Below are positions 51,858 through 64,000 of a stretch of DNA of 64,000 bases, one piece after another. The translations under genes and the position numbers were made by a program. The notes under the pieces were generated by a model, which searched no databases, was not told the DNA's origin, and saw nothing but the letters and a program-made list of their open reading frames with translations. Numbering within the stretch: the first letter of the stretch is position 1; each line of letters starts with the position of its first letter. The DNA comes from Bradymonadia bacterium (lineage in GTDB: Bacteria > Myxococcota_A > Bradymonadia > UBA7976 > UBA1532): positions 64,001-128,000 of the forward strand of contig JBKAGE010000082.1 of NCBI GenBank assembly GCA_046290225.1, in the 5' to 3' direction.

Positions 51858-53444
51858 TTATAGCACGACTCGGAACCGAGTCTCCCCAGGGCGGGTCTCA
51901 CAGCCCACCTGACCACCTCTGCTCTGAGCCACAGCCTGCACGATGGCCAGCCCCAACCCTGTACCCCCATCATCTCTGCTGGTGGTGAAGAACCGCTCGA
52001 AGAGCCGCCGCTGGTTGCCCTCACTGATGCCCGGGCCATGATCGACGACCTCGAGGCACACCTGATCGCCCACGCCCTTCGCGATGATCTCGATGGGGGC
52101 CTCGCCGTGCAGCAAGGCGTTGTCCACGAGGTTGCCCACCACCGACTCGAGGTGTTCGGGGGCGATGACGAGGTGCTCGGGCAGGGCCTCGGGTCCTTCG
52201 ACCACACAGCGTGCGGTGACACCCTCGCCAGGGTCGAACCGCGAGACGAACCCCTCGAGCCAGGCCCTGATGGGGATCTCCTCCACCTGCTCGCCCTGAT
52301 GTTCGATGCGGGCGAGTTGCAGCAACCGGCTCACCTGACGCGTCATGCGAGCGGTGGCGGCGTCGATGTTGGCGAGGAACCGGTCACGCTGAGCGGGGCT
52401 CATGTCGTCCCACGAGCCCCGCAACAGCTCGGTGGCGCCTCTCACCGAAGAGAGCGGCGTCTTCAACTCGTGGCTCACGTTGCCCACGAACTCGGTGATG
52501 TACTCGGCCCGAGCCTTCAGCTGCGCGGTCATCTCGTCGAGGGCCGCGCTGAGTGTGCTGATCTCAGAAGGCACGAGGCCCCTGGGCAGCGGCTCACGGG
52601 GCCGACCGGCGGCGATGGCCTCTGCGGCGGCGGTGATGGCCCGCACGGGGGCGGTGATGACCCGGGCAAAGAAGAAGCTCATGCCCACGATGAGCAACAG
52701 GCTGCCCACGAAGGCCAGCCCGAGCGTGCGCCGCTGTCGATAGAGGGCCTCAAGCGGGTCGATGCTGGTCCGGCTCATCCGCACCACCCCGATGATCTGA
52801 CCGTCGGCGAAGAGCGGGGTGGCGGTGAACACCCTCAAGGTGCCCCGACGACTGATGGCCCCCAGCGGGCTGCGCAGCGATGGCTGAGGGCTGCTGCTGT
52901 GTCGGGGTCGGGCGACGGCGGCATATCGACCACCGAGGGCGGCCCTGACCTCTGGCAAATGCTCGACGCACTGGCCGATCTCGTCGGCGGTGCTGGCCAC
53001 GACGCACCCCTCGGCGTTGATCACCCGAGCCCCGCTCAGATTCACCCGCTTGGCTCGATCGAGCATGGGCTTGATGGCGGCGCCGGCACGCCACTCGGGG
53101 CCGCTGCGATCACTGGCGAATCGCGTGGGCGGTGTGTTGTCTGGGGGCATCACCTCCTGATCGGGATCCGCAAGGTCGAGCACGGGCTCGATGGGGAACA
53201 CGTCAGGCACGATGGCCCAGCTGGGCGAGATGTCGGGGCCTTCACCTGTGGGCACGCCCTGGATCTCGAGCAAGGCGCTGCGCCACGCCTCGCCGATGAG
53301 GGCGGACTCGGCGATGAGCCGCCGCTCGGTCTGCCTGATCAGGTGGGTCTCGTAGACTCGGAACAGCAACAACGCCAGGAGCGGAATGAGCAAGGCCAGC
53401 ACGTTGACCGAGAGGATCAACCTCTGGATGCCGGGCCCTCTCAC
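51858..53444 (-). CDS. membrane sensor histidine kinase (CreC-like; HAMP-HisKA-HATPase)
   Basis: Two TMs, HAMP, NVSHELKTPL, NLVDNAL, DHGPG, FERFF, GTGLGL. Confidence 0.93.
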   Translation of the reverse strand: MRGPGIQRLILSVNVLALLIPLLALLLFRVYETHLIRQTERRLIAESALIGEAWRSALLEIQGVPTGEGPDISPSWAIVPDVFPIEPVLDLADPDQEVMPPDNTPPTRFASDRSGPEWRAGAAIKPMLDRAKRVNLSGARVINAEGCVVASTADEIGQCVEHLPEVRAALGGRYAAVARPRHSSSPQPSLRSPLGAISRRGTLRVFTATPLFADGQIIGVVRMSRTSIDPLEALYRQRRTLGLAFVGSLLLIVGMSFFFARVITAPVRAITAAAEAIAAGRPREPLPRGLVPSEISTLSAALDEMTAQLKARAEYITEFVGNVSHELKTPLSSVRGATELLRGSWDDMSPAQRDRFLANIDAATARMTRQVSRLLQLARIEHQGEQVEEIPIRAWLEGFVSRFDPGEGVTARCVVEGPEALPEHLVIAPEHLESVVGNLVDNALLHGEAPIEIIAKGVGDQVCLEVVDHGPGISEGNQRRLFERFFTTSRDDGGTGLGLAIVQAVAQSRGGQVGCETRPGETRFRVVL

Positions 53445-54157
53445 GGGCTGCCCCCTGCAGTCTTGAGCCGATAGCCCAAGCCATACACCGTCTCAACGGG
53501 ATCGCTCTCGGGCACCAGGGCGTTGAACTTGCCCCGGATCCGCCGAATATGGCTGTCGATGGTGCGATCGGTGATGTGATGTCCGGGACCCCAGACCCGA
53601 TCGACGAGCTCACCTCGGGTGTACACCTTGCCCGGGTGGCCCATGAGGGTGCGCAGCAGGTCGAACTCAGTGACGGTGAGCACGATCTCGTCCTGGCCGA
53701 GCAGGCACCGATGTCGCTGCAGATCGAGGGTGATGGCGCTGTGTCGCAAGATGGCGCCTTGAGGGTCGATTACGCTCCGAGCCTGTGAACGCCTCAGCAT
53801 GACCTTGACCCGCACGGCGAGCTCCCGGGGGCTGAAGGGCTTGGTGACGTAGTCGTCGGCCCCCATCTCGAGACCGAGGATCCGGTCGAACTCTTCGTCT
53901 TTGCTCGACAAGAACAAGATGGGCACTTCGCGCTTAGCTGCGTCGCTGTGGGCCCGAATGCGCCGGCAGACTTCGAGGCCGTCGAGCTCGGGCATCAAGA
54001 TGTCGAGCACGATGGCGTCGATGGGGGTGTCGTCGAAGGCCCTCAGCGCGGCGAGGCCGTCGGCGGCTTCGACGACGCTGTGCCCTGCTTGCTCGAGGGC
54101 GAAGCGTACGACCTCGCGGATGTGCCCGTCGTCGTCGGTGATGAGGATGGTGGCCAT
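53441..54157 (-). CDS. OmpR-family response regulator (CreB-like)
   Basis: ILITDDD, VLDILMP, GADDYVTKPF, RTIDSHIRRIR, VYGLGY. Confidence 0.95.
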   Translation of the reverse strand: MATILITDDDGHIREVVRFALEQAGHSVVEAADGLAALRAFDDTPIDAIVLDILMPELDGLEVCRRIRAHSDAAKREVPILFLSSKDEEFDRILGLEMGADDYVTKPFSPRELAVRVKVMLRRSQARSVIDPQGAILRHSAITLDLQRHRCLLGQDEIVLTVTEFDLLRTLMGHPGKVYTRGELVDRVWGPGHHITDRTIDSHIRRIRGKFNALVPESDPVETVYGLGYRLKTAGGSP

Positions 54158-54189
54158 GGGTGGGGAGTATGCCAGATGCTGGGGCTCAA

Positions 54190-54519
54190 CTCGCTTCGCT
54201 CGCAGATCAGTTTTCGGGCACGGGCACGGGCACGGGCACGGGCACGAGTTGATTCGGCCCTGGATTCATGGCCCTGGATGACTCTGCTCGCAGGCTCGTG
54301 GGGGTGGAGGCTGTACTCGGCCCTGCATGCTTCTCAGTACAGGTTTTGGTCCTCAATACGTTCCAATGACTGAACTCTCAGGGCGTTCTGAAGCGCATCA
54401 ACTCAGCCTCAATGATAACTGTCGCCCTGAGTCATGCCGGGCAACGGGTCAGAGTACGTATCAACTCGTGCCCGTGCCCGTGCCCGTGCCCGTGCCCGAA
54501 AACTGATCTGCGAGCGAAG
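54190..54519. mobile_element. non-coding inverted-repeat element, copy 2
   Basis: Perfect 60-bp inverted repeat 54194-54253 / 54460-54519 with five GGGCAC units per arm; interior aligns with copy 1. Confidence 0.75.
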
Positions 54520-54552
54520 GCGCCAGCCGCAGCGAGAGCCACGTGGATGGCC

Positions 54553-56151
54553 CTACCCCAAGTAAGGCAATCGCTCCCCCAACCGCCCCCACGCCTGCGC
54601 GTACTGTGCTCGGGCGAACTCGCTGGCGAAGACCACTCCGTACCCTTCAGGCACCGCGCCATCGTAATCGCCATTGAGATCCCGGCTGTACTCCGCGTAC
54701 TCCGCCCGGGGTACCCCCATTGAGTCGAGCACCGTCGACAGCCACTGGTTGTAGTACAGGCCTGGGCGGTTGGGCTCGTCGAGGCCGCCGGGGTTCTCGC
54801 CTTCAGCGATGGGCCAGCCGACGCCCTGATTGCGATAGTCGATGTACTGCCCCGTGGGCATCGCGCCGCCAGCGCCGCCGGCCGTGACGATGGGGATGCC
54901 CATCGAGTCGTGGGTGTTCATGCCCGACTCCTGGGTCCAGGCGATGAGCGTGTGATCGAGCACATTGCCACCCGCGGGATCTTCGATGGCTGACAGCTTG
55001 CGGGCCAGATCGAGGAACACGTGTTCGAAGAAGCGCTGCTGGGCTTCTACGAGCAGGGGCTGGCGCTCTTGGGTGAGGCACTGGTGGGCCACGTCTTGAT
55101 GCCAGTCGCCCACGAAGTCGGAGAAGGTGGCGTAGGCCCCCATCACCGCGAGGCGGCTCACCCCACAGGCCAGGGCCGTGGCCACAACATCGTTGTGGTT
55201 TTGCCAGAAGCGCACCTGCCCCGCGGCGTCGCCGTCGGTGATCAGCTCACCGCTGCGACCAGGCTCGACGACCTCGCAGGCCACCTGAGCGGTGATGCGG
55301 CGCTCCAGCTCGAAGAGGCGATCCATGTGCTCGCTCAGGCGGCGGCGATCCGCGGCGCCGAGGCGGCGGTTGCTCTCCATGAGGCTGCGGTAGCTCTCCC
55401 GCACGCGATCCACCACCAACGGTCGGGGCGTGCTCGGATCCTCGTTCGGGCGGAACAGGCGGTTGAACAGCGCGATGTTGTTCTGCTCTGGCGAGAGGGG
55501 CTGCAAGCGGCCGCTGCGATCAGAGGGTCGGGACCAGTTCCACGAGATGCCCCGCTGACCCACCACAATGGTGCGCAGGCGGTTAGTGCTCAGATCGCCA
55601 TAGAACGAGGGGGACCACGCCATGACCTGATCGATGGTGGGTCGAGGGTGATTCCAGAGGAAGGCGCCCTCGCTGCCGTTGCCGTCGTTGGCGGCGAAGT
55701 TCCCCAGGTGGCCGCCGCGATGGTGGGCCAGGTAGTAGGGCACGTCGAGGCCGCGGATCACGTTGAGCTGCCTCACCATGGCCTCGTCGAGGGCCTCGGC
55801 AGAGGCTGAGAGGACCGGTGAGATCACCGACTGACCGCCTTGGGCATTCGCCCGCAACGCTCCGGCGCGGATGGTGTGGCCGGCGTACTCCATCTGCTGA
55901 TCGAGCAGCTGGGCGCCGGGGTACATGTTGACGCCCCAGATGCCCCCGTGGGGGGTGACGAAGGAGACAAAGCGCTTTGCGCCGCGCTCCATGTTCTGGG
56001 CCTGTGCGCTCTTGGGGAGCAGCGACGGCATGAAGGGGGTGGTCAGGGCGAAGCCCCCGAGGCCGCGGAGCAGCTGGCGCCGGTTCATGTGACTGGGGTT
56101 CATGTGGCTGGGGTTCATGTGGCTGGGATCCTTTTGACGCGACATGATCAC
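54553..56151 (-). CDS. DUF1552 domain protein (Tat-exported)
   Basis: NRRQLLRGLGG..PFMPSL Tat-like leader, TIDQVMA, DRRRLSEHMD..ELERR, LACGVSR, NVLDHT; follows DUF1592 gene. Confidence 0.85.
   Translation of the reverse strand: MIMSRQKDPSHMNPSHMNPSHMNRRQLLRGLGGFALTTPFMPSLLPKSAQAQNMERGAKRFVSFVTPHGGIWGVNMYPGAQLLDQQMEYAGHTIRAGALRANAQGGQSVISPVLSASAEALDEAMVRQLNVIRGLDVPYYLAHHRGGHLGNFAANDGNGSEGAFLWNHPRPTIDQVMAWSPSFYGDLSTNRLRTIVVGQRGISWNWSRPSDRSGRLQPLSPEQNNIALFNRLFRPNEDPSTPRPLVVDRVRESYRSLMESNRRLGAADRRRLSEHMDRLFELERRITAQVACEVVEPGRSGELITDGDAAGQVRFWQNHNDVVATALACGVSRLAVMGAYATFSDFVGDWHQDVAHQCLTQERQPLLVEAQQRFFEHVFLDLARKLSAIEDPAGGNVLDHTLIAWTQESGMNTHDSMGIPIVTAGGAGGAMPTGQYIDYRNQGVGWPIAEGENPGGLDEPNRPGLYYNQWLSTVLDSMGVPRAEYAEYSRDLNGDYDGAVPEGYGVVFASEFARAQYAQAWGRLGERLPYLG
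56082..56126 (-). repeat. 15-nt tandem repeat x3 (PSHMN) in the DUF1552 leader
   Basis: ggttcatgtgRctgg three times. Confidence 0.9.
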
Positions 56152-58181
56152 TCCCCCTCGACGCAGGTGCGCAGGTGACGGAACTCGGGCGCCCGGGCGA
56201 GGGCGAGCAGCACCTCGTCCAGGGGGGCGCCCTCGAGCAGCTGACCGCTGAGGCCTTCGATGAGGGCACGATCAGAGCGGTGCTCCGGTCGGCCGAAGGT
56301 GAACCGGAAGTATTGTTGGGCGAAGCAGCGATGGGCCTCGCCGCTGTCGAGGATCAAGGCCGTGGTGTCGATGGCGTCGGCGGCGGGGGTGTCGTCGCCG
56401 ATGATGACCTGGGGCACCGTCCCGGTCTCGATGGGGCGGCGCCCGATCTCGTCCCCCCACTCACCGTAGAGACGCTGCTCGCTGCGCAGGCGGCCGAGGG
56501 CGTCGAAGTTCTCCGTGGTGAAGCCCAACGGGTTGATGAAGCTCACGTGGCAGCCGGCGCAGACCGACTCGGGCTGCTCGGTGAGCTCTTCGACCACCTC
56601 GCGGCTGGTCATCTCCCCCGAGAGCTCGGGCTCTTGCACCATGACGTTGGGCGGCGGCGGGGGCACCTCGCCACAGAGCACCGCCTCCCGCAGGCGCACC
56701 CCCTTCATGATGGGTCGAGTGTTTGCTGATCCCGAGGCCACGAGGGCCGCTCGGGTGATGAGGCCCGCACGCTCTCGCTCCGGCAGCGGCTGGGGCTCAC
56801 CGCCTCGCCACGCCGTGGTGTCATAGATGGCCGCCAGAGCATCGTCTCGGGCGAAGTTGAGGGTGCTGGTGAAGAGGGCGTCGAGGTTGCCCGGGGCGGT
56901 GATGGCGTAGTGCACCCCGAGGGATACCACCTCGTCGATCATGGCCTGGCGCAGATCGTTGTGCACCTCGATGCCCTCGGAGAAAGCGTCGAAGACCGGC
57001 GTACCCCGAAGCCGGGTCACGTCAGGCAGCTCGTCGAGGCGCAACCACTCGGCGAAGAAGGCCTCCATCGAACGATGCGTGCGGGCGTCGCGGTACACGC
57101 GATCGAGCTGGGCCTCGAAGCCCGCCTCGGTGAGCAGGCTGCCGTCCTCTGCGGCGTCGAGCAGGGCCTCGTCGGGCATGGACTGCCAGAAATGATACGA
57201 GAGCCTGCTGGCGAGCTCGTAGGCGTCGACGGCGTAGATGCCCAGCTCGGCGTCGATCACGCCTTCATCCCCGGGCAGGCCGTGCTCCACCTGATAGAGC
57301 AGTCGTGGAGACGAGAGCATGGTGCCAAAGAGCGTGCTCAAGCCCACCCGCTCCGGCCACCACCAGGCGTCGTCGGGGTTCTCGGGCTCGCCGGCCTCGG
57401 ATCGGGCGGCGCTGTAGACGTCGATGTAGAAGTCGAGCTCGGTGTCGCTGAGGGGTCGGCGATGAACCAGACGGCCGACGCGCTGCACCATGGGGGTGAT
57501 GCAGTCGAGGCCTTCGTCGAGTAGGTCGCAATCCTGCAGCACCCGGCTGGCCCACCATGGCTGAGACAGCTCGTTGCCGAGCACGGTGGCGATGCGCAGT
57601 GCCGTCTCGACGTGCTCCTCGTAGACAGCCTGGTCCAGCCGCCGGAAGCCTCCACGGATTTCGTCAGGAGCCCCCACAGGGGTGTCTTCGGGCATGGCCT
57701 CGTTCCACTCGAGCATCACCCACCAGAAGTGCTCGTTCTCGGCGGTTTCGCCCACGATCACCCCGAGCAGATCGTTGATGGTGTTGAGGTACTGCGCCCG
57801 GGTCAGACGGCGCAGCGGCTGACCTGGAGCGTCGCACTGCTCACCGGGCTCGCCGCCCATGCCACCGGCACCAGCCATCCCACCTGCGCCCGCATTGCCT
57901 CCAGCGCCACCTTCACCTGCAACACCTCCAGCACCGCCGGGTACGCCTCCGGCGCCGGCTATGCCGCCAGCGCCTCCGGGGTCGCCGCCCATGCCTCCTG
58001 CCCCGGCCACCCCGCCCGCGCCAGCGGACCCACCTGCTCCACCTTCAAAGGCACCTGCGCCGCCAGCATTGCCGCCCATCGGCCCGGCACCGCTCTCGGC
58101 CCCGTCGTCACACCCCGCGCTCCAGCACGCGAGGGCGAGGGAGATCAGCACGCTGATCGAATTGCAGGGGGGGTGACGCAT
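56148..58181 (-). CDS. DUF1587/1595/1592/1588/1585 multidomain lipoprotein with CxxCH motif
   Basis: LRRLTRAQYLNTI, HRRPLS, YELASRLSYHFWQSMPD, RAGLIT, PIMKG, CAGCH, GFTTENFDALGR. Confidence 0.9.
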   Translation of the reverse strand: MRHPPCNSISVLISLALACWSAGCDDGAESGAGPMGGNAGGAGAFEGGAGGSAGAGGVAGAGGMGGDPGGAGGIAGAGGVPGGAGGVAGEGGAGGNAGAGGMAGAGGMGGEPGEQCDAPGQPLRRLTRAQYLNTINDLLGVIVGETAENEHFWWVMLEWNEAMPEDTPVGAPDEIRGGFRRLDQAVYEEHVETALRIATVLGNELSQPWWASRVLQDCDLLDEGLDCITPMVQRVGRLVHRRPLSDTELDFYIDVYSAARSEAGEPENPDDAWWWPERVGLSTLFGTMLSSPRLLYQVEHGLPGDEGVIDAELGIYAVDAYELASRLSYHFWQSMPDEALLDAAEDGSLLTEAGFEAQLDRVYRDARTHRSMEAFFAEWLRLDELPDVTRLRGTPVFDAFSEGIEVHNDLRQAMIDEVVSLGVHYAITAPGNLDALFTSTLNFARDDALAAIYDTTAWRGGEPQPLPERERAGLITRAALVASGSANTRPIMKGVRLREAVLCGEVPPPPPNVMVQEPELSGEMTSREVVEELTEQPESVCAGCHVSFINPLGFTTENFDALGRLRSEQRLYGEWGDEIGRRPIETGTVPQVIIGDDTPAADAIDTTALILDSGEAHRCFAQQYFRFTFGRPEHRSDRALIEGLSGQLLEGAPLDEVLLALARAPEFRHLRTCVEGE

Positions 58182-58342
58182 CTCTTCCTCCAGAGCAAAC
58201 CGTGTCGATGGAGCCATCACGCAAACCGAATGCCAGAGCGAGCCTCGTGGCTGGACGACGCCATTGCAAGGCGCCCTACCCTTCTGGCCCTGAGACGTAA
58301 GCAGATGTCACATGAGATGTCCCATGGGACACCGTGGGTCGG

Positions 58343-60142
58343 TCACGGCAGCTCTTCGCTCAAGCCACCCTCTCGATCGGGGCCCTCAGTCACCGAAAGC
58401 CCTCCGAGTTGACGCTGGCGATGCCGCCACTGGATGGCGTCGATGGCCAGCTCCGCCCGCTTGCGCAGGGTGCGGTTCACGAACCACCCCTCCGCAGCCT
58501 GCCGCAGCGCCGGGATCGCCTGCTCAGTGCCCACTGACTCAAGGGCCTCTGCGGCCCGGAGCCTCACCTGCAGCGTCGGCGCGTCGAGCAGTCGACAGAG
58601 CGCCCGACTCACACGCTCGGGTGCTTCCGCGAGGATGATCTCTGCAGCAGCCTCGGCCGCATCGGGCACATCGAGGAGATCGACGAACCCCTCTCCGTGT
58701 GTGCTCATGCCCGCGGCGTAGATCGCCTGGGCGCTTCGAAGGCGGGCTTCACCGCTCCTGCCGTGGGCTGCCGCGATGAGACCCTCTCGGGCGACCTCTC
58801 CTGGCAGCGCCGCGACAATGGCGCCCACATGGGCACCAAACTCCGGGTCTGCGCCGAGCTCGAGCAGGCTCTGCAGCAGACGCTCAGCGCTCCGAGCGGT
58901 GCTCGCCTCGAGCAGGCGCGCCGTGGCGCGGCGTACCTCTACAACCTCGTGCTCGAGCAAAGTGTCGAAGGCCTGTGGCAACTCGGCGAGGGCTGGATCC
59001 ACCACGCGCCGCAGCCGCGCCGCAGAGACCGCCCGCTCTGGTCCCCCCTCGCGGATCAGCGTCCTGAGCACCTGCAACGCAGCGTCGAAATCAACCTGCA
59101 CCCAAATCGCCAGGGCCTCGTTTGCCAAAGCCTCGTCAGCGTGCTGCGCAAGGTGAGCGCACACCTCGGCCACGCTGTCGGGCTCGACCGCCAGGAGCTG
59201 CTTCGCGAGGTGCAACACCCGGCGTGGATCTTCCAGGGCAGCGAGGGCCTCGCCGAGGCGGCCCAAGGCCCGCTCGGAGCCATCCGCAGCCAGGGCTTCG
59301 GCCCCCTTGGCGAACCACCACCAGCAGGGCGACTCCAGCGCGCGAAACAGCGCATCTTCGTAGGCGAGAGACGGCAGCGCCTTGAGGGCCTCCAGATGAT
59401 CGTACACAGCGTCGGGAGACAGTGATTCACCGATGGCTGCGAGGGCCGCTCGGGCGAGAGCGAGAGCTTGCCGGGTCTCAGCCCGCTCCTCGGGGCTCAT
59501 CCGCTCGAACAAGATGTACCAGGGGCCGTGATGCCGCACGGGGTGCAACGCCGCCCAAACCTCGTCGGGCAGATGATGCAGGGCCCGGCAGCTGCTGCAT
59601 CGCGTGATGCGGGGCGTGGCGCCGTCGACCCGCTGGCCCACATCACAGGCAGGGCACCTGATCCAGATGGGCTCGGTCACACCTGCGGGGGTGTGCTCGC
59701 CGGTCCCGTCTACGCCGTCGACCCCATAGATCTGCACCGCATCTGGGACCTGGGCCTTGAGCCACTCCGGCGGAGGGCAGGTCTCGCTCTGGGCCCCGCA
59801 CTCGGTGCACACCACTGGCCGGTTCCGACCGATGTCCGCCGCCGAGAGGAGCAAATCGGATCCACATTGCCAGCACAGCGGCCACTGGCGACCGTAGATC
59901 ACCTCCAGACCTTCACGGCCTGCGGCTGCCGCGTGGCGTGTCGCACCTACGGGCAACGCGTCGAGCCCCTGAGCCAAATCGAGGGCGAGGCCTGTATAGA
60001 CCCCTTCGGGGATCGACACCGCGGCCCCGCAGTGCTCACACGTCACCTCGGGGGTGGGCCCCAACAGCCGCACCTGGCCAGAGCACTCAGGGCACTCCAG
60101 CGCCATGCGGATCATGCCCCAGCGGTGGTGCTCAGGTCGCAT
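58343..60142 (-). CDS. triple Zn-ribbon plus HEAT-repeat protein
   Basis: Six CxxC pairs (CPEC/CEHC, CWQC/CTEC, CPAC/CSSC); VRRATARLL, VRLRAAEALESVG HEAT repeats; start uncertain. Confidence 0.8.
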   Translation of the reverse strand: MRPEHHRWGMIRMALECPECSGQVRLLGPTPEVTCEHCGAAVSIPEGVYTGLALDLAQGLDALPVGATRHAAAAGREGLEVIYGRQWPLCWQCGSDLLLSAADIGRNRPVVCTECGAQSETCPPPEWLKAQVPDAVQIYGVDGVDGTGEHTPAGVTEPIWIRCPACDVGQRVDGATPRITRCSSCRALHHLPDEVWAALHPVRHHGPWYILFERMSPEERAETRQALALARAALAAIGESLSPDAVYDHLEALKALPSLAYEDALFRALESPCWWWFAKGAEALAADGSERALGRLGEALAALEDPRRVLHLAKQLLAVEPDSVAEVCAHLAQHADEALANEALAIWVQVDFDAALQVLRTLIREGGPERAVSAARLRRVVDPALAELPQAFDTLLEHEVVEVRRATARLLEASTARSAERLLQSLLELGADPEFGAHVGAIVAALPGEVAREGLIAAAHGRSGEARLRSAQAIYAAGMSTHGEGFVDLLDVPDAAEAAAEIILAEAPERVSRALCRLLDAPTLQVRLRAAEALESVGTEQAIPALRQAAEGWFVNRTLRKRAELAIDAIQWRHRQRQLGGLSVTEGPDREGGLSEELP

Positions 60143-60989
60143 CAGCCTCGACGTCGTCCGGGATCTCTGCCTCAGCGACGCCCTCGTCTGCGTCACCTGC
60201 CACGCCCTCAGGCTCTGCTGTCAGTGCCGGCGTCTCAGCGCCCATCGGCGGGCCTTCGATGGCCCGCATCTCGGCATTGATCTCCGCCAGTACTCTGCGA
60301 GCCTCCAGCTGCTGTCGAGCGCGCTCCACCTCACCAGAGAGCTGCAACGCCTCAGTGCGGGTCCGGGCAGCCTCCAGGCGGGCGGTGATCTCCGTGAGCC
60401 CTTGGGCGTCACGGGCATCCTCGTCGCTGAACTGATCGAGGCCTGACTGGGCGAAGTGCTCCACGGCGATCTCGTCGATGCGAAACCCAAAGAGATCGCC
60501 ATCGACCCGCTCGAGGACGCGGGCGCTCAACCGTTCAGGCCCCTCAGCGAGCTCAGGGAACCCGCTCTCGACACAGGCGGTGATGAGCGCTTGTTGCAAC
60601 ACAGGGCTGAGCAGCTCGGAGACCGCCTCGGGATCGCTCACCCCACGAGGCCCCAGAGCCCTGGCTGCGGCGAGCACCCCTTCTCGGGTCGGGTCGACCC
60701 GCACGGTGCACGTGAGCACGATGTCGACGCGACAGCTGTCGGCGGTGATGAGGGCCGCTCTACGGCGACGGTCGAGGCGCAGATGTCGGGCGGTGAGATC
60801 GATGGTGGAGGTCTGATGCAACCCGGGCCAGACCAGCGCGCGCTCGAAGGCCACCTCGGTGGCGCCCCCGCGGGTGATGATCAGCGCACACCCCGGCGCG
60901 GGATGACGAAACAATCGCAACAATCGCCAGAGCTGAACGCTGACGACCCCTGCGAGCCAACCGAGCAAAATGTAAATCCAGGGGCTCAC
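60132..60989 (-). CDS. SPFH/flotillin (YqiK-like) domain membrane protein, short
   Basis: N-terminal TM; ALIITRGG..ALVWPGLH, LITADSCRVDI..VRVDPTREGVLAAARALG; start uncertain (60989 or 61019). Confidence 0.7.
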   Translation of the reverse strand: MSPWIYILLGWLAGVVSVQLWRLLRLFRHPAPGCALIITRGGATEVAFERALVWPGLHQTSTIDLTARHLRLDRRRRAALITADSCRVDIVLTCTVRVDPTREGVLAAARALGPRGVSDPEAVSELLSPVLQQALITACVESGFPELAEGPERLSARVLERVDGDLFGFRIDEIAVEHFAQSGLDQFSDEDARDAQGLTEITARLEAARTRTEALQLSGEVERARQQLEARRVLAEINAEMRAIEGPPMGAETPALTAEPEGVAGDADEGVAEAEIPDDVEADAT

Positions 60990-61061
60990 GGCGCCCAGTG
61001 TGCTGCCCCCAGCCGCCAAGGTCCAGCGTCTATACTCTCAATGTGGCCTGTGCAGATTGCC

Positions 61062-61844
61062 TCAGCAGGCCGGGGCTTCGGCCCAATCGTTCACAGGGGG
61101 CAGCCCCAACGCTTCGAGGCGGGGCAGGATCACCGTGCGCACGGTGTCGTAGAACAACGCTTGCGCAGCCTCGCCGTCACACAGGCCCAGCATGTGGCCG
61201 TCAGTCAACGATGGTCCGGGCTGCAGGTGAGCCACCTCATAGGCTTCGAGATGTCGCAGTGCCATCGGCAGCCACTCACCGAGGCGAGCGCGGCTCTCAG
61301 CGGACATCCACGGCAGGTGCTCTGCGAGCCAGCGCCAGCCAAAGCGACCGTGGCCCACCTCATCGGAGAGGATGCGGGTGAGCAGCCGACGCAGAGGCCC
61401 CTCGGGCATACCCAGACGCTCCGCCGTGATGAGCGACACCGCCACCGTCTCGCTCAAGCAACACACGCTGATGATGTTCCGAGCCACCGCCTCGAGCGGA
61501 TCGAGACCGGCGTGGGCAGGCATCTCGTCTGCAGTGGGCAGCGGCTGATCACCGAGGGCTGCGCCGCCGAGGGCCTCCACCACCGCCCCGCACAAGACCC
61601 CGTGCTCGCGCTCTTCTTGAGCGAAGCCCTTCAGAATCTCCACATCGCTCGCCCGACCGCCTGCAGCTTCGAGCTGATCGGCGAGGCCCTCGAACACCGC
61701 GCAGGATCCGTACTCGTTCATCATGCGGCCGCGCCAGGTGGCGAGGGCCGCTCGCCGAAGTGCGGGCTGCAGATCTTCGAAGTCGAGGCCACAGTGGCGC
61801 GCAGTGGCTTGAGCAGGTGCGCGCAAGTCGAGGGTGATGTTCAT
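61062..61844 (-). CDS. ferritin-like di-iron protein
   Basis: Four-helix carboxylate ligands: NEYGS, EEREH, SET, DEVGH; ATGA coupling to upstream gene. Confidence 0.85.
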   Translation of the reverse strand: MNITLDLRAPAQATARHCGLDFEDLQPALRRAALATWRGRMMNEYGSCAVFEGLADQLEAAGGRASDVEILKGFAQEEREHGVLCGAVVEALGGAALGDQPLPTADEMPAHAGLDPLEAVARNIISVCCLSETVAVSLITAERLGMPEGPLRRLLTRILSDEVGHGRFGWRWLAEHLPWMSAESRARLGEWLPMALRHLEAYEVAHLQPGPSLTDGHMLGLCDGEAAQALFYDTVRTVILPRLEALGLPPVNDWAEAPAC

Positions 61845-62344
61845 GCGATCGTCTCCCACGTGTCCGAGGGGGGCATCGGGGGGCCCCACACGTCACAGGC
61901 CGGGGAAGGCCACCCCTCGCGCTCACAGCACTCGGTGAAGGCCTCCCAATCTTCGTCGATCAGGGCCCGACACCCCAGATCTGCGTCAGCGAGCTCTGCA
62001 TCCCGCAGCGCCTCACCCATGTCGGACACCTCGGCGTCGGCAGATGGCAAATCTGCGTCGGCCAGGCCCCAATCGGCGTCGTCGACACCGCCATCGTCGA
62101 GCCATTGTCGATCGATGGGCTCACTGTCGACCTCGGCCATCCCCCCCTCACCCGACTCGACCTCGCCCCCAGCACCACCCATCTCACTCTCCGGTGCTGG
62201 GGGCTCAGTCTCGGGATCCTCGATGCATCCACCGAGGCTCAACGCGCCGGCGAGCACGGGCAGGGTGAAGCTGATCTGGGCAGCGGCCTTCAAGGCCAGA
62301 CGATGACGCTCTGCGCGGCTCAAGGGCTCCATGGGGCTCTCCAT
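61841..62344 (-). CDS. acidic lipoprotein with C-terminal Cys/Trp/Pro motif
   Basis: Lipobox LGGC, D/E/A-rich linker, GC..ECCEREGWPSPACDVWGPPMPP. Confidence 0.7.
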   Translation of the reverse strand: MESPMEPLSRAERHRLALKAAAQISFTLPVLAGALSLGGCIEDPETEPPAPESEMGGAGGEVESGEGGMAEVDSEPIDRQWLDDGGVDDADWGLADADLPSADAEVSDMGEALRDAELADADLGCRALIDEDWEAFTECCEREGWPSPACDVWGPPMPPSDTWETIA

Positions 62345-62414
62345 TCATCTGTGTATTGACACCATGACCGCGGTCCCGTCATCTGGTAAATCAGAACGTT
62401 CAAAACAGAATTAC

Positions 62415-62438
62415 TCGACAATCACGAACAATCATTCG
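62415..62438. promoter_or_regulatory. putative LysR binding site
   Basis: TCG-N7-CGA (T-N11-A) at 62415-62427 overlapping CGAA-N6-TTCG in the AT-rich divergent gap. Confidence 0.4.
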
Positions 62439-62446
62439 AGACGCCA

Positions 62447-63337
62447 ATGTGGCCTGATCCAGAGTCGCTTCGCTGCTTCCTCGAAGCCGCCAACCTGTTG
62501 AATTTTCGGGCAGCTTCGGGGCGAGTTCATCTCTCCCCTGCAGCCTTCAGCGAGCGAATCAAGGCCCTCGAAGGGCTGATCGGCGCCCCCCTTTTCACCC
62601 GCACCACCCGCTCCGTGAAGCTGACCGGCGCGGGTCAGCGCTTGATCCCCCTGGCCCGGGAAGCCCTCGCAGCAGGGCAACGCTGCCTCGAAGTGGGCCA
62701 GAGCGACGGCCCTGCCCCGGTGACCCTCACATTGGGCACCCGATACGAGCTGGGTATGAGCTGGCTCACGCCGTCGCTGTCTCAGCTGAGCACGGAAGCC
62801 CCCCACCGGCATCTGCACCTGATCTTTGGCGACACCCCCGCTCTGATGCGGGCGCTCCAACGCGGCGAAGCAGACGCCATCGTCACCAGCCACCGCCTGA
62901 GCCGCGGCGATCTGACGTATGTCTCGCTGCACCTCGAGCGTTACGTCTTCGTCGCCACACCCGAGTTGCTGAGCGCCCGGCCACTCACCTGCCCTGCAGA
63001 AGCTGAAGGCCACACCCTCCTGGACATCAGCCCGGACCTGCCACTGTTTCGATATTTTCTCGATGCCCGGCCGCCGGTAGAAGTCTGGGGCTTCACGGCG
63101 ATGTCGTACATGGGCACCATCGGCGCGGTGCGCGCTCGAATCCTCGAGCACTCGGGGGTCGCGGTGTTGCCACTCTATTTCGTCGAAGCCGACATCGATG
63201 CCGGACGCCTGACTCGTCTCTGCCCGGAGACGATGCTGCAACAAGACTATTTTCGACTGATTTGGCGCCGCGGCCACCGGGAGAGCGAGGCACTCACAGC
63301 CCTGGGCGAGCGCCTGAGCACGATGCCCCTCTGCTGA
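62447..63337 (+). CDS. LysR family transcriptional regulator
   Basis: LRCFLEAANLLNFRAAS..LSPAAFSERIKALE..LFTRTTRSVKLTGAG. Confidence 0.95.
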   Translation: MWPDPESLRCFLEAANLLNFRAASGRVHLSPAAFSERIKALEGLIGAPLFTRTTRSVKLTGAGQRLIPLAREALAAGQRCLEVGQSDGPAPVTLTLGTRYELGMSWLTPSLSQLSTEAPHRHLHLIFGDTPALMRALQRGEADAIVTSHRLSRGDLTYVSLHLERYVFVATPELLSARPLTCPAEAEGHTLLDISPDLPLFRYFLDARPPVEVWGFTAMSYMGTIGAVRARILEHSGVAVLPLYFVEADIDAGRLTRLCPETMLQQDYFRLIWRRGHRESEALTALGERLSTMPLC

Positions 63338-63355: not shown

Positions 63356-64000
63356 TCAGATTTGAGCCACCACCAGCGCGATGTTGTCCTGGCCTCCAGG
63401 ATGATCGCCTACGCCATTGAGCGCCCGCATGGCCAGACGTCGTGTATAGATGCGTGGCTGGGTACCGTTCTGGCGATAGAGATCGACGATGTCGTCGAGG
63501 CTCACTGAGGTCTCGGGCTGGCGGTAGTGGCACTCGTCGATGCCGTCGGTGAACACCATGAGCAGCTCACCGCCGGTACATTCGAACTCGAAGGTCTCTG
63601 CGTTGTGCGCCCCCAACGTGCCGGGCCAGGCAGGGCTGATGAAGGTGTTGAGCTTGCCGTTGAGCCGCCGGCCGCCCTCTGGTCCCACAGCGACGGCGCT
63701 GGAGTCACCGAAGCTCACCCCGAAGCCACGACCTGTGGCGCGATCGAAGATCACCACGAGCAGGGTGGCCTCAGACTCTTCTTGCGGATCATCGTCTTCG
63801 CGATGGGTGGCGGCGACGGCCTGCATGAGCCCCTCGGCCTCCGTCACCCCCTCGAGGGCTGCGGGCAGCCGCTCGATGAGCGCGTGGCTGGCAAAGGGCC
63901 CGAAGTGAGCATCAGAGACCGCCATCACGATGCGCGTGCCGTCGTCGTACCCGAGGAGGGCGTCCTCATTGGGCACGTCGGGATCGCGCTTGAACTGCAC
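63356..64000 (-). CDS. PP2C/SpoIIE-family phosphatase, partial (runs off window end)
   Basis: NEDA, AVSDAH, FGDS, FTDGI, QDNIALVV. Confidence 0.85.
   Translation of the reverse strand: MQFKRDPDVPNEDALLGYDDGTRIVMAVSDAHFGPFASHALIERLPAALEGVTEAEGLMQAVAATHREDDDPQEESEATLLVVIFDRATGRGFGVSFGDSSAVAVGPEGGRRLNGKLNTFISPAWPGTLGAHNAETFEFECTGGELLMVFTDGIDECHYRQPETSVSLDDIVDLYRQNGTQPRIYTRRLAMRALNGVGDHPGGQDNIALVVAQI

Follow-up and report, generated by a model that had tools for sequence, protein, structure and literature searches.

Why should a ferritin-like di-iron protein without any export signal be encoded in close coupling with a lipoprotein destined for the cell envelope? The question is raised by a locus within a 64,000-nucleotide stretch of the genome of a Bradymonadia bacterium (GenBank assembly GCA_046290225.1, contig JBKAGE010000082.1, positions 64,001 to 128,000; hereafter the window), where a partner lipoprotein, the di-iron enzyme and a LysR-type regulator lie exactly at the positions given in a preliminary description made from the sequence alone. 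That description had proposed that the enzyme oxidatively modifies the tail of its partner before surface display or, alternatively, that the pair forms an inducible metal/redox module. Here, we examine the conservation, the predicted structures and the regulation of this pair, and conclude that it is probably a LysR-induced lipoprotein system belonging to the ribosomally synthesized and post-translationally modified peptides (RiPPs), similar to the class called DAG-RiPPs, with the ferritin-like oxidase acting as the maturase of a Trp-Gly-Pro tail.

The pair is a conserved unit of the Myxococcota and a widespread two-gene system, whose cultured carriers include Chondromyces apiculatus and Sorangium cellulosum. 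A contig search with the single enzyme sequence gave no match and the loci were found when an alignment was used; the locus counts given here refer to the best 80 of 236 confirmed loci (ten more loci partly duplicate these) and, since related genomes are not independent, all linkage figures should be read as plain counts, without statistical inference. The preliminary description had made its proposal depend on the WGPPxPP tail being conserved and linked to ferritin-like genes elsewhere, and this linkage was found in 77/80 loci. The partner lies upstream of the enzyme in 69 of these (being fused to it in frame in eight) and directly downstream in eight more; among the three loci without a partner, L051 and L074 end at contig edges and L102 is complete. 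When 251 evenly sampled genomes of the phylum were searched, with an enzyme threshold of E<=1e-60, the tail was present in 28 and the enzyme in 35, all 28 being within the 35. Twenty-eight of the 29 tail matches adjoin an enzyme match, the remaining one lying where a contig ends; reciprocally, 38/40 enzyme copies have an adjoining partner, and 10 of the 12 copies without a tail match have a variant one. Four genomes contain two or three enzyme copies (10 copies), each with a partner of its own. In a quick tree (119 rows) the fusions appear at six places, two of them as sister pairs; further fusion searches produced one known match and none above 509 residues, which is weak evidence. No reductase, protease, transporter or pathway gene was tied to the pair in the 80 neighbourhoods, whose open reading frames (ORFs) were clustered by BLAST and inspected by eye, and the neighbours that do recur besides LysR reflect housekeeping synteny within lineages.

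Neither the partner nor the enzyme scores above a Pfam or NCBIfam cut-off, and the same is true of their relatives. The 167-residue partner nonetheless has the recognizable parts that had been ascribed to it: an LGGC lipobox, an acidic low-complexity spacer (84 residues, with 28 Asp/Glu versus 2 Lys/Arg) and a tail that reads, exactly as described, G-C125-x13-C139C140-x9-C150-DVWGPPMPP. A profile of this tail retrieved 716 clusters at 50% identity; among the matches listed, C-x-x-W-G is found in 150/150, and these matches, with the exception of one fusion, are short proteins that carry the motif close to the C-terminus. The family version of the tail is C-T-P-W-G-P-P-x-P-P-x-M, with 8-47 variable residues after the Gly. 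Six positions (C39, C50, W53, G54, P55 and P58 in the alignment numbering) are invariant in 72 partner sequences; once divergent variants are included in a broad alignment, this holds for G, P and P-P alone. The other conserved element is a leader helix within the signal peptide, whose pattern A-L-R-A-A-A-K/R-V is matched in 154/216 distinct partners; the h-region of the signal is short and twin Arg occurs in only 38/154 leaders. A conserved leader and a conserved tail thereby stand on either side of a free and variable spacer, and the leader helix is a candidate for the element that the enzyme recognizes. Judged by pattern, the lipobox, with its Cys40 behind a hydrophobic stretch, is that of a DAG-RiPP precursor; its Cys is nearly invariant in the partner alignment, the preceding Gly/Ala/Ser having been required by the search pattern.

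Between the leader and the tail there is a small Cys domain, with six invariant Cys in a long subtype and four in the subtype of the window. The number of cysteines is 4, 6 or 8 in 109/154 partners and odd in 44/154, and those of the tail look more like disulfide pairs than sites of modification. An AlphaFold2 model of a natural fusion gave a pLDDT confidence value of 97/91 for the leader helix, ~95 for the Cys domain, <50 for the spacer and 66 for the WGPP stretch; its predicted template modelling score is 0.72, and in a fold search with it some alignments extended, though weakly, into the N-terminal part. Two partners (L121 and L122) have a signal like that of signal peptidase I (SPI) substrates, with neither lipobox nor CC domain, and retain the leader helix and C-G-C-x-P-C-W-G-P-P-A-P-P; in two further variants the Trp is replaced by Val or Pro. 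At locus L116 (G236) the partner is convergent on the opposite strand and has the tail C-Y-V-A-V-P-G-P-F-V-P-P-S-M, and upstream of the enzyme in both L116 and L117 there is a thioredoxin-like lipoprotein-thiol gene (CxxC). A leader profile search of the genome of the window revealed no second substrate. The Atlas match to PF28386 (BfoA_C), with a score of 0.78, was below lead level and was not used.

The 260-residue enzyme has, as had been reported, the full di-iron ligand set (E44, E78xxH81, E132 and E162xxH165) and no signal peptide, its N-terminus not being hydrophobic; a signal-like N-terminus is found in 0/117 unfused enzymes. The six iron ligands are invariant in 118/118 aligned sequences, and in the 101 sequences of the clade they share this constancy with W37, R40, C85 and W170. 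The AlphaFold2 model (pLDDT 95.8) shows a di-metal bundle of four helices, to which further helices are added at the C-terminus. Its best fold match is 4mud, a PaaA-like protein (Z 17.5, root-mean-square deviation 2.7, 206 aligned), followed by aldehyde-deformylating oxygenase (ADO; Z 16.5), PaaA, MMOH and R2 (16.2 each) and R2lox (15.1), all at sequence identities of 11-18%. The oxygenase-class folds score Z 14-17.5 over 200-230 residues versus Z ~11-13 over 135-155 for Dps and bacterioferritin. To judge by this model the enzyme resembles oxygenases and not storage proteins, and its conserved ligands predict the binding of Fe2 (or Mn/Fe) and the activation of O2.

Cys85, the fourth residue past the first ligand His, occupies what would be the place of the radical Tyr122 in the R2 subunit of ribonucleotide reductase (RNR) and of Cys151 in MMOH. 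Class I RNR R2 was rejected as the enzyme's identity on account of this Cys in the place presumed for the radical Tyr, together with the lack of any R1-like recurring neighbour and of a Pfam RNR match. The role of Tyr122 in R2 is confirmed in the portion of the source available (PMC5623701). The best profile-to-PDB sequence match is to AurF/CmlI (E 0.06), N-oxygenases with which the enzyme has the ferritin-like di-iron fold in common. An AurF-type identity was nevertheless rejected, since their third His ligand is absent: the corresponding position, seven residues ahead of the last His, is Ile158 in 98/101 sequences and Leu otherwise. Membership of the Ferritin/Dps/bacterioferritin family (PF00210) was rejected at 13 bits versus a cut-off of 24.5, with no aligned member at E<=0.001, and that of DUF455 (PF04305) at 16.5 bits for the window protein versus 34.3, with weak matches in 21/118 members (best E 2e-6). 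The family of the multinuclear non-heme iron-dependent oxidases (MNIOs; PF05114) gave no match.

The regulator carries HTH_1 and LysR_substrate domains above the Pfam cut-offs (61.3 and 85.3 bits) and is, as described, divergent from the pair across an AT-rich gap (102 bp, 45% GC versus 65% in the window). The T-N11-A site that had been singled out in this gap is at chance level as a signal, with 6 seen versus 6.6 expected. What does stand out is a 46-bp element with the family consensus ATTGTA-N11-TACAAT-N9-ATCAT.C.GATTGT. A matrix built from other genomes was run over both strands of the 8.58-Mb genome, and its best match anywhere, at 31.8 bits, is the operator in this gap; the next reached 22.5, and 13 exceeded 14. 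Inspection of the three next-ranked matches revealed no second operator-led gene. The operator scores >10 in 53/62 partner-first loci versus 0/8 enzyme-first loci, and some WGPP pairs (G102 and G169, for example) are without it. We predict from these sequences that the element is the site of the LysR subfamily, which occurs in 58/251 genomes. A LysR gene adjoins the pair in 33/80 loci (23 upstream and co-directional, 7 downstream, 1 convergent and 2 divergent); the divergent layout of the window is thus the exception. Conserved pocket motifs in the regulator may imply a small-molecule inducer. The subfamily also keeps Cys10 (39/41) and Cys80 (37/41) in its DNA-binding and linker region, with a possible redox or metal role.

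The same operator precedes other genes as well. Among 40 further LysR loci, 18 have the operator, and in 16 of these the next gene encodes a lipoprotein whose signal peptide is ordinary. Two of the 16 are precursors with an MNIO gene behind them; the others comprise nine larger proteins, among which several show weak beta-propeller matches, three that are cytochrome-c-like by motif and two pentapeptide-repeat proteins. Unlike the WGPP partners, the 16 have no leader helix. Five of the larger lipoproteins contain N-x-x-x-Y-A-P/N-P and a beta-propeller-like one N-C-Y-G-P-C-P. The lipoproteins without an MNIO (L171-L173, L175, L176, L180, L183, L185-L187 and L190-L193) are unrelated proteins. In the clusters with an MNIO, that enzyme exceeds the PF05114 cut-off, and the MNIO precursor family has the operator in 13/14 loci, the 14th being truncated, and an adjoining MNIO in 13/14. 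The members of this family (L168, L182 and L223-L236; 13/151 genomes of one class) carry the motifs N-C-Y-G-P-C and C-Y-x-x-P-C, the first of which, by eye, has an aromatic-Gly-Pro in common with the WGPP tail. Precursor and MNIO are a candidate DAG-RiPP in their own right. Since the same LysR operator stands ahead of these RiPP-type clusters, the RiPP-like branch of the preliminary description is, by analogy, favoured over a plain metal/redox module.

According to the main text of PMC13056109, cytosolic MNIOs act on lipoprotein precursors that are yet to be lipidated and modify their C-terminal motifs. A DAG-RiPP-like pathway is the simplest account of our pair, because its anatomy is the same as that described there and the operator is common to an MNIO cluster. 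Among the features counted in favour of a maturase are the following: the invariant C85 together with the complete ligands and the oxygenase-class fold; the precursor-like arrangement of leader and tail around a spacer; and the loss of lipobox and CC domain in two variants that kept the leader and CGCxPCWGPPAPP. The proposed pathway would begin with the binding of LysR to the operator and the induction of the operon, the inducer being perhaps a metal or envelope stress, if the analogy with MNIO products holds. The leader helix, together with the P-P-x-P-P-x-M stretch, would be recognized by the enzyme, whose Fe2 centre would use O2, with no dedicated reductase, to oxidize the tail in the cytoplasm. 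The product would then be exported and lipidated at Cys40 by Sec, Lgt and LspA and become anchored in the envelope, with its even-numbered cysteines paired as disulfides. As for the chemistry, an oxidation without scission (hydroxylation, desaturation or a cross-link at Trp, Gly, Pro or Cys) is quite conceivable, if short of probable. We are more doubtful of an oxidation of the Gly followed by scission of the backbone, which would leave a C-terminal amide and discard the Pro-rich follower. In favour of scission, the Gly is the most constant residue, the sequence past the Pro-rich stretch is free, no protease is encoded and the recurring fusions need some means of leaving a folded enzyme behind.

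A number of observations weigh against the maturase and, in part, against scission in particular. Small molecules or acyl chains, and not peptides, are the substrates of the nearest solved folds. Two genomes, G235 (L102/L115) and G255 (L117), have an enzyme with intact ligands and no partner either nearby or genome-wide; such enzymes may be orphans or may serve a substrate that escaped recognition. No MNIO or ferritin-like gene was seen downstream of 14/16 of the operator-led lipoproteins, and the regulon therefore does not require a maturase. The low confidence of the WGPP stretch beside a well-folded leader and Cys domain in the fusion model would fit a stable folded partner equally well. 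The fusions place the enzyme behind an export signal, and it must then be either cut free or exported. The aromatic-Gly/Ala-Pro motifs of the operator-led lipoproteins suggest that the tail may be kept, and aromatic-Gly-Pro is possibly a working surface of the product; both points speak against scission. Finally, scission would fragment the repeat-type partners of a more distant clade, that with CNPPPP motifs, described below.

Three rival explanations were weighed. The pair could form a stable non-covalent metal/redox module, or an enzyme with its regulator, in which the tail serves for docking or inhibition and stays chemically unchanged. Translational coupling at about 1:1, the fusions at six places on the tree, the confident folding of leader and Cys domain in the fusion model and the six invariant Cys of the long subtype, suggestive of a disulfide-bonded domain, would all suit such a complex. 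We consider it unlikely nonetheless, since the enzyme's lack of an export signal would leave the two proteins in different compartments, and their joint export as a Tat complex, itself rejected for want of a conserved twin-arginine motif in the leaders, is unlikely. Furthermore, two variants do without the Cys domain, the repeated motifs in partners of other clades resemble multiple substrate sites, and the MNIO parallel points to modification.

Less likely again is an enzyme that oxidizes a small molecule or an acyl chain in the manner of ADO, R2lox or PaaA, with the lipoprotein as a co-induced carrier, sensor or acceptor. The top-ranked folds (PaaA-like, ADO, PaaA, MMOH and R2lox) and the small-molecule inducer that the LysR pocket motifs may imply are in its favour; the low identity to those same folds, the lack of any recurring catabolic, biosynthetic or electron-transfer gene in the 80 neighbourhoods and the strict tie to a ten-residue peptide motif, with each enzyme copy accompanied by its own partner, argue against it. 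We regard as very improbable an iron-storage, encapsulin-cargo or peroxide-removing protein that is co-regulated with the lipoprotein by chance. The weak matches to Pfam Ferritin (E 0.096) and to EncC (profile match, E 0.076), and the presence of OxyR among the nearer solved relatives of the regulator, point in that direction. However, the Ferritin score is well below its cut-off, the storage folds score lower than the oxygenase class, no encapsulin recurs in the 80 neighbourhoods, the conserved cysteines of LysR are N-terminal and not in the effector domain, and co-regulation alone would leave both the fusions and the conservation of the motif unexplained.

The enzyme belongs to a large family: 1083 homologues were found among 8000 candidates scored, and their named records are mostly from Myxococcota. 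By eye, the weaker relatives often adjoin exported proteins with Cys/Pro motifs of their own, some of them repeated 2-5x. The motifs of these distant clades include C-P-x-G-A-x-C-N-P-P-P-P repeats, x-N-P-x-P repeats, C..G-R-P, C-A-V-P-G-F-V-G and G-K-C-A-W-F; among the loci listed, several had no obvious partner. The genome of the window itself has four related copies, that is, three ferritin-like copies in addition to the one described here. One (G000:C10:21838-23190) has an exported partner with two C-P-E-G-A-x-C-N-P-P-P-P repeats, another (C9:22519-24149) a lipoprotein partner ending in C-A-V-P-G-F-V-G and a basic tail, and in the third (C6:7095-8345) an exported protein is fused to the enzyme via a G-R-P motif. 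We suggest, very tentatively, that the WGPP pair is one branch of a large Myxococcota superfamily of ferritin-like di-iron maturases, each with its own exported substrate. The glycine of a C-terminal tag would be oxidized and the backbone cut at that point, so that the product, a disulfide-bonded miniprotein held by a lipid anchor, would end in an amide; the fusions would cut themselves, and within a single LysR regulon this system and the MNIO clusters could replace one another.

Among known systems the closest are the DAG-RiPPs (DybA/DybH and NedA/NedBC; main text of PMC13056109), which likewise have a precursor of the signal peptidase II type with a conserved C-terminal Cys motif beside a signal-less non-heme iron enzyme, in small clusters without protease or reductase and with both SPI and signal peptidase II variants within one family. 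They differ in that their enzyme is a TIM-barrel MNIO, whereas here it is a four-helix di-iron carboxylate protein; the words "ferritin" and "diiron" have no occurrences in that main text. Relative to the systems described there, the C-x-x-W-G-P-P-x-P-P motif, the sequence-conserved signal peptide, the natural fusions and the dedicated LysR operator are distinctive of our pair. Most likely, then, the pair works like a DAG-RiPP without being an MNIO system, the modification of its motif being argued by analogy. The bufferins, oxazolins and chryseobasins made by MNIOs (DUF692, PF05114; available portion of PMC12452194) also have exported Cys-motif precursors, modified before export in their case, and the 46-bp operator ahead of an MNIO and lipoprotein cluster in other Myxococcota is a further link. 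In contrast, the enzyme folds are unrelated, and here the cysteines are mostly even-numbered and no gene of the DUF2063/RRE type recurs. With the R2-like di-iron oxygenases (PaaA/C, ADO, MMOH, RNR R2 and R2lox; FDOs in the accessible part of PMC13108848) the enzyme shares the fold and the 4Glu/2His ligands, and it differs from them in having no R1, reductase or multicomponent partners and in its tie to a peptide motif. We found neither a description of this pair nor a ferritin-like di-iron oxidase described as the maturase of a ribosomal peptide in a literature search whose coverage of subscription journals was limited. No description of the operator-led MNIO cluster was found in this search either; the supplements of PMC13056109 may list the precursor family.

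The features of the locus are collected in Table 1. The overlap of the partner's TGA with the enzyme's ATG that had been reported is present in the sequence.

Table 1. Coordinates of the regulator, the pair and their elements (positions are those of the window)
Feature	Position	Strand	Basis
Ferritin-like di-iron carboxylate protein, 260 aa, putative maturase, R2/PaaA/ADO structural class	61062..61844	-	model, fold, conservation
Partner lipoprotein precursor, 167 aa (163 aa if start = Met5)	61841..62344	-	sequence, tail profile
Leader helix R13-I24, family pattern, within signal peptide	62273..62308	-	pattern, fusion model
Lipobox L-G-G-C40	62225..62236	-	sequence; Cys conservation
Acidic low-complexity spacer of varying length and sequence	61973..62224	-	composition
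Cys cluster C125, C139, C140, C150 and tail motif; candidate core and follower	61868..61972	-	alignment
ATGA stop/start overlap (translational coupling)	61841-61844	-	sequence
46-bp operator, predicted LysR site	62387..62432	-	matrix search
LysR-type regulator, distinct subfamily	62447..63337	+	Pfam

The start of the enzyme is the ATG at 61844, preceded by GGGAG and used by its homologues as well; a GTG at 61889, within the partner tail, had been given in the ORF list and was rejected for this reason. The partner probably starts at Met5 (62332) rather than Met1, since GGAG is found upstream of the former and not of the latter, and the Atlas record of the partner starts there too. A scan for sigma-70 promoters and terminators gave no match. 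Contigs from four DNA sequencing runs covered pieces of the locus, among them neither the tail of the partner gene nor the overlap. Downstream on the same strand, 60132-61019 encodes an SPFH/Band 7 protein and 58343-60196 a zinc-ribbon/HEAT-repeat protein, neither of which recurs beside the pair in the 80 neighbourhoods. The other neighbours (51858-58220 and 63356-64000) are ordinary and include a DUF1592/1588/1595/1585/1587 protein with its DUF1552 partner, a response regulator/histidine kinase pair and a PP2C/SpoIIE-like phosphatase.

If the ferritin-like protein is indeed the maturase of its partner's tail, it would represent a new enzyme class for RiPP chemistry and assign a role to a large family that lacks annotation (1083 near homologues and 716 partner clusters). 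Were the scission version to hold, this would be a bacterial, iron-based system of amidation and self-processing. The system is a compact one, of two genes and a ten-residue target. Its operator defines an undescribed LysR regulon, the output of which is nearly always a lipoprotein, and links the WGPP pair to the MNIO cluster; the inducer of this regulon would consequently point to the function of both.

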